The translations under genes and the position numbers were made by a program. Under the pieces are notes generated by a model. The model saw only the letters and a program-made list of their open reading frames with translations. It was not told where the DNA came from and ran no database searches. Shown one piece after another: positions 61,989 through 64,000 of a stretch of DNA of 64,000 nt (position 1 is its first letter; every line of letters begins with the position of its first letter). The stretch is from the IMG/VR virus record IMGVR_UViG_2703718833_000007, positions 6,191-70,190 of that record. One strand, written 5' to 3'. Source of the stretch: a virus (lineage: Duplodnaviria > Heunggongvirae > Uroviricota > Caudoviricetes).

Positions 61989-62750
61989 ATGGAGACTGTT
62001 TTTGACGCACTGAAAGCAATGGGAAAAGCCACGTCGGTAGAACTGGCTGCGCGACTTGATATCAGTCGTGAAGAGGTACTGAACGAGCTGTGGGAACTGA
62101 AAAAGGCTGGTTTCGTTGATAAAAGCGTATACATCTGGCGTGTGGCTGATAACAACGTTCAGCAGGAACAGCCAGAGCAGGCAGAACTGCCGGAAGAAAC
62201 CACCACGGCAACAGTCGCAAAAATTTCGGAGTGCGATTTAACTGCGACGATTGAACAACGTGGCCCACAAACGGCGGATGAACTGGCTACGTTTTTCGGC
62301 ATCACATCACGCAAAGTGGCTTCAACGCTGGCAATGGCAATCAGTAAAGGTCGTCTGATTCGCGTTAATCAGAACGGTAAATTTCGTTACTGCATGCCGG
62401 GCGATAATTTACCAGCAGAGCCGAAAGCTGCATCGGTAGCGGAAACTGATGGTAAAGCCTTTCCTCAGCCAGCCGGTGTTGCGTTACCAGCACAGGAAGC
62501 GGCAACACAGGAAGAAATTAAAACAGATACTATGGGGGACATTGTGCAGTCACTACCATCGTTCACTGAAACGCGAGCCAATGACCTGATTTTACCATCG
62601 CTGCATATGGCAAACCGCGAACTGCGCCGGGCGAAAAGTCATGTCCAGAAGTGGGAGCGAGTCTGCGCCGCGCTGCGTGAGTTGAACAAGCACAGGGATA
62701 TTGTACGACAGATTACTGATTCTTCCCGCCATGTTGCATCGGAAAAGTGA
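61989..62750 (+). CDS. DUF977-family protein (ydaW-like, apparently full length)
   Basis: Track ORF 61938-62750 trimmed to [13 protein letters not shown]; N-terminal wHTH-like. Confidence 0.55.
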
Positions 62751-62765
62751 TTGCCGGAGGCACCT

Positions 62766-63095
62766 ATGGCAAAAGTATTTACACCAGAAGAGCGGGAAAA
62801 AATTAAAGGGCAGGTTGTTGAACTTGTACGTCTGAGCGGTCGCGAGACGTTACGGGCTCTGGAGGCTAAAACCGGTGCATCAAGGTATTACATAAGCACT
62901 CTTGCCAGAGAACTGGTCGCCAGTGGTGATGTTTACAATTCTGGCTACGGATTATTCCCGTTTGAGCAGGCGCGTAAAGACTGGCAAAACGCCCGCAAAA
63001 AACTATCAAGGGCAAAGATGAAGAAACCGGTTGTGGTAGATCCAAACCTAATCTGGTCATTACCTGATGGAGAAATCCGTCGCCTTAGTCTTTGA
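62766..63095 (+). CDS. Hypothetical protein
   Basis: Track ORF 62751-63095 trimmed to MAKVFTPEE with GGAGG SD. Confidence 0.4.
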   Translation: MAKVFTPEEREKIKGQVVELVRLSGRETLRALEAKTGASRYYISTLARELVASGDVYNSGYGLFPFEQARKDWQNARKKLSRAKMKKPVVVDPNLIWSLPDGEIRRLSL

Positions 63096-63196
63096 TACTA
63101 TGTTTATAATGTTGAAAAAGAGTCTAATAGTTGACATTGTATGAAATATGATTGTTATATAAAATGATTTTTTTGGAGACTGTTTAAGGTAAACAA

Positions 63197-64000
63197 ATGA
63201 AACCAGAATACTTAAGGAAAATAGAATCATTGCAACGTGAGGTTGATGATTTCCATCCAGTGCTAAGAGCGCTTCTACCACGTTTGCCGACTGTTACACA
63301 TGTTGAATATAAGCAAGGACCATCAGAAAAAGGTGCTGATTTTGTCATAATTAAACGAGATGAGGCATTAGATGAGGAAATATATATTGGGGTTATTTGT
63401 AAGGTTGGAAAGATAATTCAGTCAAATAGTGAGGTCGAACGACAAATAGAAGAGTGTCAATTATACCCACGCTTTATTTCTTCTGGCTCTAAGAACATAC
63501 ATTTGAATGAAATTTGGGTTGTTACTAATTCATCAATCTCAAATAATGCTCAAGAAAAAATCTACTTAAAATTCAAATCTACAAATATAAAGTTTATAGA
63601 AGGTGAGAAAATATGTTCTTTAATCAGTAAATATTACCCAGAGTTTTGGGATTTCGAATCCATTAATTATGAGCAATACTTAACAGATACATTGCAAACC
63701 ATAAGTGATACTCCTGAAAGTTATTTTTTTGGTAGTGTTGGCATAAATAACCTTATTGATAGATATGTAAGCAAGGAAGATCATAAAAAACGCAGGCACA
63801 GGCCGTTAAAACTGTATAGTGTTGTGAGAGCCGAGAGATTTATTTTTTTAGAGGGAGCTGTTGGCTCCGGGAAAAGTACTTTGCTGAAACAGCTAATTAA
63901 AAAAATAAAAGAAGAATATTCTTACGAAAAAGACTACATCCTTCCAGTATTTTGCCAATACAAGGATGTTCTAGAAAAAAACTCAATATTGAAAATATAA
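63197..64000 (+). CDS. AT-rich cargo gene, 5' part: P-loop NTPase with possible nuclease-like N-terminal domain (candidate anti-phage defence protein; continues beyond window end)
   Basis: Track ORF 267 aa, open at window end; Walker A LEGAVGSGKSTLL near residue 215; markedly lower G+C than flanking prophage genes. Confidence 0.5.
   Translation: MKPEYLRKIESLQREVDDFHPVLRALLPRLPTVTHVEYKQGPSEKGADFVIIKRDEALDEEIYIGVICKVGKIIQSNSEVERQIEECQLYPRFISSGSKNIHLNEIWVVTNSSISNNAQEKIYLKFKSTNIKFIEGEKICSLISKYYPEFWDFESINYEQYLTDTLQTISDTPESYFFGSVGINNLIDRYVSKEDHKKRRHRPLKLYSVVRAERFIFLEGAVGSGKSTLLKQLIKKIKEEYSYEKDYILPVFCQYKDVLEKNSILKI

Follow-up and report, generated by a model that had tools for sequence, protein, structure and literature searches.

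What does the strongly AT-rich gene at the end of this viral DNA encode, and would it still protect the bacterium that carries it? The window, by which we mean the whole stretch of 64,000 nucleotides that was analyzed, ends on this gene, which an earlier note, made from the letters alone, had put forward as a candidate defence gene. Our main reading, to which we give a probability of about 0.9, is that 63197-64000 holds an allele of bNACHT25 that was inactivated in nature. bNACHT25 is an antiphage system made of one gene, and Rac-type prophages carry it as low-GC cargo in the interval from the DUF977 gene to hokD. The candidate was thus well chosen as to its class, since the gene is a nuclease/STAND NTPase prophage cargo of anti-phage immunity, but this particular copy is most likely a pseudogene.

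The genomic setting was analyzed by comparison with Escherichia coli genomes. The prophage had been called Rac-like, and it is indeed a Rac located at ttcA: positions 50700-64000 align at 99.8% to the Rac prophage at ttcA of E. coli LC-1302-2020, where the order over this interval is ttcA-intR-xisR-ralR-recT-recE-racC-ydaE-kilR-sieB-ydaF-...-ydaT-ydaV-DUF1627-DUF977. The Rac immunity/replication module at 59175-61213 differs from the racR-ydaS-ydaU type of strains 19KM1766N and N921. It contains a 139-aa HTH repressor (59175-59594, minus strand), a small HTH gene and ydaT, and a 262-aa protein without Pfam match (60425-61213) replaces ydaU. An Rfam scan of 56000-64000 gave no match. From position 1 to about 47175 the GC content is lower (0.42-0.49), and phage tail and tail-fibre genes are found at the end of this part, just upstream of ynaN/zntB. 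As tail genes close this low-GC stretch of ~47 kb, a second prophage would be located there, separated from Rac by the zntB-dbpA-ttcA segment. Strains LC-1302-2020 and FDAARGOS_1249 display no homology before 47175.

Three plus-strand ORFs are present in the ORF listing between 61989 and 64000 (Table 1). The name DUF977 had been attached to the wrong one, as the 253-aa gene matches DUF1627 and the 109-aa ORF matches DUF977. The former, whose syntenic equivalent is annotated 'DUF1627 domain-containing protein' (WP_001741626.1), belongs to the conserved Rac backbone and is not cargo. The 109-aa protein covers positions 1-99 of the 134 of its profile and carries the RefSeq label 'incomplete; missing C-terminus', whereas DUF977 is intact, with 140 aa, in strain L73. 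The third ORF has a G+C content of 0.328 and the 101-nt intergenic leader in front of it (63096-63196) one of 0.228, against 0.496 for the neighbouring 61989-63095. This difference had been estimated by eye, with the advice to compute windowed GC. The computation, with 804-nt windows across all 64 kb (mean 0.458, sd 0.036), agrees with the estimate: the ORF is the lowest-GC stretch of the window, about 3.6 sd under the mean.

Table 1. Features of the last part of the window; positions are those of the window, residues those of the 267-aa product.
Feature	Position	Strand	Basis
DUF1627 gene, 253 aa, N-terminal wHTH-like region	61989-62750	+	Pfam PF07789, E 6.1e-97
DUF977 (ydaW-like) gene, 109 aa, truncated	62766-63095	+	Pfam PF06163, E 2.6e-14
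Left part of the low-GC cargo cassette	63078-64000		homology breakpoints and GC drop
Perfect TTGACA hexamer in the AT-rich leader	63131-63136	+	read from sequence
Frameshift-truncated bNACHT25 allele, 267 aa	63197-64000	+	identical to WP_187642915.1
Probable Mrr-like PD-(D/E)xK DNase effector domain, residues 22-143	63260-63625	+	Pfam Mrr_cat, E 6.2e-4
D48 codon (in GADFVIIKRD)	63338-63340	+	sequence motif
K69 codon (in IGVICK)	63401-63403	+	sequence motif
Walker A GAVGSGKST, residues 220-228	63854-63880	+	motif; Pfam NACHT match begins at 214
A7 run (frameshift site; A8 in the intact allele)	63975-63981	+	alignment to intact allele
Premature TAA stop from the frameshift	63998-64000	+	last three bases of the window

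The limits of the cargo were deduced from Rac prophages devoid of the gene. These lose homology at a point equivalent to window position 63077 (L001 12377, L007 4377), that is 18 nt ahead of the DUF977 stop codon, and match again from the hokD region (L007 7238). The two breakpoints thus define a low-GC insert of about 2.86 kb with bNACHT25 as its sole gene, whose left junction is at about 63077/63078 and whose remaining part lies beyond the window. The DUF977 ORF is truncated at the cassette junction and its last 18 nt are cassette-derived; in RefSeq DUF977 is a pseudogene in every strain examined here with the cassette and an intact junction. The native DUF977 C-terminus was replaced on arrival of the low-GC cassette. 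Directly downstream of the variable slot, the Hok/Gef type I toxin gene hokD (L007 7426-7581; L006 9605-9760) is the right-hand conserved flank marker; in LC-1302-2020 the hokD region is replaced by IS3. The equivalent slot of strain L73 (L006 7696-9179) contains, after the intact DUF977, two overlapping unannotated minus-strand genes of 184 and 310 aa, for which we found no PADLOC match and only a sub-threshold Pfam match. As occupant of the same slot, this pair could be another cargo or defence unit, so far undescribed. As for expression, the TTGACA hexamer of the leader could, judged from its letters, serve as the -35 element in a promoter of the gene itself; a sigma-70 consensus scan of the plus strand upstream of the gene gave no complete -35/-10 pair. 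In the constructs of Conte et al., the bNACHT genes were cloned along with the native promoter regions that precede them (PMC12169576, 'Plasmid construction').

The earlier note held the family to be not identifiable, but the intact syntenic allele gives it a name. We compared 62700-64000 by megablast with complete E. coli genomes, requiring at least 80% query coverage at one place. Sixteen genomes carry such a place, and in 13 of them the ORF runs on as a single CDS annotated 'NACHT domain-containing protein', with 2259 nt and 752 aa at both loci that were fetched (L001, L007). The intact allele of LC-1302-2020, at the syntenic position, is WP_001702659.1. This accession is that of bNACHT25 in Conte et al. 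(PLoS Biol 2025; PMC12169576, 'Accession numbers') and of bNACHT25 from E. coli ECOR11 in Kibby et al. (bioRxiv 10.1101/2022.07.19.500537, Fig S9 legend). Over 1301 nt, the window differs from this reference allele by two SNPs and one indel (DNA 99.8% identical), and 259 of the 261 native residues match. It is thus the same gene as ECOR11 bNACHT25 (Kibby et al. 2022/2023; Conte et al. 2025), which sister strains carry at an identical place in the prophage. This gene is already known, having been described and mechanistically dissected in 2022-2025, and for this reason the locus has little discovery value. A literature search found no paper joining Rac prophage and NACHT.

Defence-specific libraries were far less informative than Pfam. 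A PADLOC search had been advised; with PADLOC-DB v2, the full-length and truncated proteins gave six weak, partial, P-loop-level matches only (HerA, VakA, mad8 and others), the best with E 5e-6 over about 100 residues, and no specific model. NCBIfam gave no match above its cut-offs, those to 'DS8_antiphage' and 'EruA' being far below threshold, and a PDB sequence search returned no relative at E <= 0.01. In the intact protein, on the other hand, Pfam detects NACHT (PF05729) at residues 214-353, with 37.2 bits for a cut-off of 26.7, and NCH1 (PF22728) at residues 576-741 (E 2.2e-38); residues 23-143 match Mrr_cat weakly. This set of domains is the clade-6 architecture of the bNACHT papers.

The motifs quoted in the earlier note are all present (Table 1), and its guess of a nuclease N-terminus was a good one: the aspartate that it had chosen, D48, is needed for defence, the D48A substitution abolishing both bNACHT25 defence and infection-triggered DNA degradation (PMC12169576). 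In the window product, the Mrr_cat match reaches 20.3 bits, just under the gathering score of 21, and spans profile positions 12-115 of 115. On the basis of this sub-gathering Pfam match and of the published mutagenesis, we describe the N-terminus as PD-(D/E)xK-like. An AlphaFold2 model of the 267-aa fragment, computed without alignment, had a pLDDT of 36.9, too low for it to be of use. The NACHT match of the same product, at 24.6 bits, falls under the 26.7 cut-off, and Walker A is the sole NACHT motif that remains.

The difference between the window copy and intact bNACHT25 lies in a homopolymer. The longest one of the intact gene, an A8 tract, is an A7 run in the window, and this 1-bp deletion shifts the frame after L259-E260-K261 (residue 261). 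In the product, NSILKI and a stop come after 261 native residues. The ORF had been taken as cut by the end of the window, because the TAA created by the frameshift falls, by chance, exactly on the last three bases of the window; it is in fact listed as complete with its stop, and a truncation by the window edge is ruled out. Two substitutions add to the frameshift: S176Y, from a SNP at 63723, and T221A, from a SNP at 63857, which is private and affects a variable position of Walker A. The truncated product has in common with bNACHT25 the probable Mrr-like DNase domain with its D48, the linker and the Walker A region. It lacks Walker B (LLIVDSVDE, residues 285-293), which falls past the frameshift, the remaining part of NACHT including the winged-helix region with the regulatory position H506, and NCH1, the coding DNA of which lies beyond an IS5 in the matching contigs. 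The frameshift-made stop implies that the copy of the window strain is probably a non-functional pseudogene that gives no protection. Indeed, without NACHT and NCH1 the effector would be neither regulable nor assemblable, from which we infer a loss of function of this allele.

We then asked how often such lesions occur, by exact-sequence look-ups of the protein products among contigs. The product of the window (WP_187642915.1) was found on 2 contigs, the A7 product without the two private substitutions on 195, and intact bNACHT25 on 117. A 234-aa product, resulting from a T7 to T8 slip at nucleotide 647 of the gene, was present on 57 contigs. A second allele background, with 50 differences over 2259 nt and 744/753 protein identity, is represented by an intact protein on 567 contigs and by an A7 product of its own on 38; the A7 copy of strain LD67-1, which belongs to it, differs from its intact counterpart by the missing A alone. 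SNPs specific to the background are located 19 nt before the A-run and 3-7 nt after it. As they flank the slip so tightly, the A8 to A7 change most parsimoniously arose at least twice. Altogether the A8 to A7 products amount to 199 and 38 contigs on the two backgrounds (L002, L003, L008, L009), and on the first one the frameshifted copies are more numerous than the intact ones. In GPEC1446, a complete genome in which only the 3′ 55% of the query matched, an IS3 is inserted in the 5' end of the gene.

A further lesion probably affects the window lineage itself. The two contigs with the exact window product end soon after it, and one of them, LONT01000016.1, shows no difference from the window over the final 8804 nt of the latter. 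Each continues bNACHT25 for 375 nt past the window end and then, at a CTAG target, reads GGAAGGTGCGAACAAG..., which matches the IS5 annotated in 1805 genome records of E. coli. The insertion point is codon 394. From this identical draft contig we infer that the genome of the window would carry the same IS5 as a second lesion, and with the frameshift and this insertion the locus would most likely be a dead remnant.

Other explanations of the A7 run were considered. Homopolymer indels are the commonest error of long-read assemblies, and the A7 genome LD67-1 has several further 'frameshifted' genes nearby, so one could wonder whether the run is a sequencing or assembly error in a strain that really carries an intact and functional bNACHT25. 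We regard this as most improbable: the exact 267-aa product, with its two private substitutions, is found on two independent NCBI contigs, its parent A7 product occurs on contigs from many sources, and the contigs matching the window also have IS5 within the gene. Another idea is that the A7/A8 tract would be a contingency or recoding site and not only a decay hotspot, with a low amount of full-length protein (K262N) still coming from A7 alleles, either because ribosomes shift by -1 on A_AAA_AAC or because transcription slips, so that a potentially self-toxic NLR-like nuclease is kept at very low dose or made switchable. Such a route would be relevant to the A7 alleles without IS5. The run is read in this frame as GA A_AAA_AAC, which places an A_AAA_AAC heptamer in phase; a -1 shift there leads exactly back into the bNACHT25 frame, and 9 nt before the heptamer there is an AGGA. 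The slip also recurs on two backgrounds and is commoner than the intact allele on one. However, no stable downstream structure is present, the best hairpin (-3.3 kcal/mol) beginning 15 nt downstream, and E. coli ribosomes shift less readily on A_AAA_AAC than on A_AAA_AAG. Moreover, other alleles have been hit by unrelated lesions (T7 to T8, IS3, IS5), as in ordinary decay, the window allele has two added non-synonymous changes, and the downstream IS5 would make any rescue impossible in its lineage. A tract that toggles or leaks the nuclease is therefore, in our opinion, very unlikely.

One could also assume that the truncated product is a functional stand-alone Mrr-like nuclease, with a restriction or toxin activity independent of NACHT. 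The leader, the start codon, D48 and K69 are all kept, the allele persists on many contigs, and a related A7 product that differs by two residues has been named 'restriction endonuclease family protein' by one source. In the intact protein, however, the nuclease is silent until NACHT activation. Overexpression of wild-type bNACHT25 is not toxic whereas that of the H506L variant is, which indicates that the nuclease domain needs a NACHT-driven assembly. A constitutively active DNase would also be counter-selected, and clonal inheritance of a neutral remnant explains the persistence of the allele equally well. We consequently give hardly any credit to an autonomous nuclease and retain the naturally inactivated bNACHT25 allele as the reading of this locus.

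What has been lost can be appreciated from the published work on the intact protein. bNACHT25 protects against MS2-like ssRNA phages as well as T2 and T4 (PMC12169576). The MS2 coat protein is a sufficient trigger, without binding to bNACHT25, and DnaJ and its J-domain function are needed. The H506L substitution makes bNACHT25 hyperactive and stimulus-independent. On this basis, the intact 752-aa protein is a clade-6 relative of animal NLR immune sensors, in which the central NACHT NTPase keeps the N-terminal Mrr-like DNase off. Phage protein synthesis (MS2 coat protein, or T2 or T4 infection) is sensed indirectly, via the co-chaperone DnaJ of the host and its interaction with DnaK. The nuclease, once switched on, degrades intracellular DNA and halts phage production. 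In the window strain, the deletion in the A8 tract ends the protein at 267 aa, leaving it without Walker B, the rest of NACHT and NCH1. The IS5 found at codon 394 in the window-identical contig would add a second interruption, so that a dead remnant without protection would be left.

A parallel can be drawn with other nuclease-NTPase systems. The antiviral STAND proteins of the Avs2/Avs4 type, reportedly described by Gao and coworkers in 2022, work, like bNACHT25, with a nuclease effector at the N-terminus, then a STAND NTPase, and a sensor at the C-terminus, and they too are single-gene, abortive-type defences. Avs proteins are much larger, possess TPR-like sensors and directly bind the phage terminase or portal, whereas the NCH1 domain of bNACHT25 is short and helical and its sensing of phages is indirect, through DnaJ. 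An assignment to Avs types 1-5 was rejected, as PADLOC-DB v2 gave no Avs-named match and the C-terminus is NCH1, not TPR. OLD-family and Abi-type proteins were likewise discarded, with no such match in Pfam, NCBIfam or PADLOC and with a domain order, here, of an N-terminal nuclease followed by the STAND NTPase. The suggestion of an Avs, OLD or Abi relationship accordingly gives way to bNACHT25. The other tested clade-6 protein, bNACHT32 (WP_057688292), shows the same PD-(D/E)xK, NACHT and NCH1 architecture; it is a more distant paralogue or orthologue, likened to bNACHT25 by its published description. It is 81% identical to bNACHT25 and shares its D48 dependence, its defence against MS2 and T4 and its dependence on DnaJ (PMC12169576). 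Finally, eukaryotic NLRs such as NLRC4 contain a homologous NACHT module with different effector and sensor domains, and equivalents of the NLRC4 H443 and S445 disease alleles hyperactivate bNACHT25 (bioRxiv 10.1101/2022.07.19.500537). The window copy keeps only the first approximately 48 residues of this NLR-type module.

These data have consequences for the way in which such genes are searched for and counted. Pfam NACHT and NCH1 alone flag this gene. It could escape automated defence annotation, since neither PADLOC-DB v2 nor NCBIfam yielded a specific match. Cargo is exchanged in the slot between DUF977 and hokD of Rac-type prophages, where other strains carry alternative unannotated gene pairs. 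Were the recoding switch true, it would account for the excess of A7 over intact copies on one background and for a slip that arose at least twice. In a large share of natural bNACHT25 copies, an IS element or the recurrent homopolymer slip has inactivated the gene. Functional immunity is thus overstated when bNACHT genes are counted in genomes, and such frequent knockouts hint at a fitness cost of carrying the bNACHT25 nuclease.
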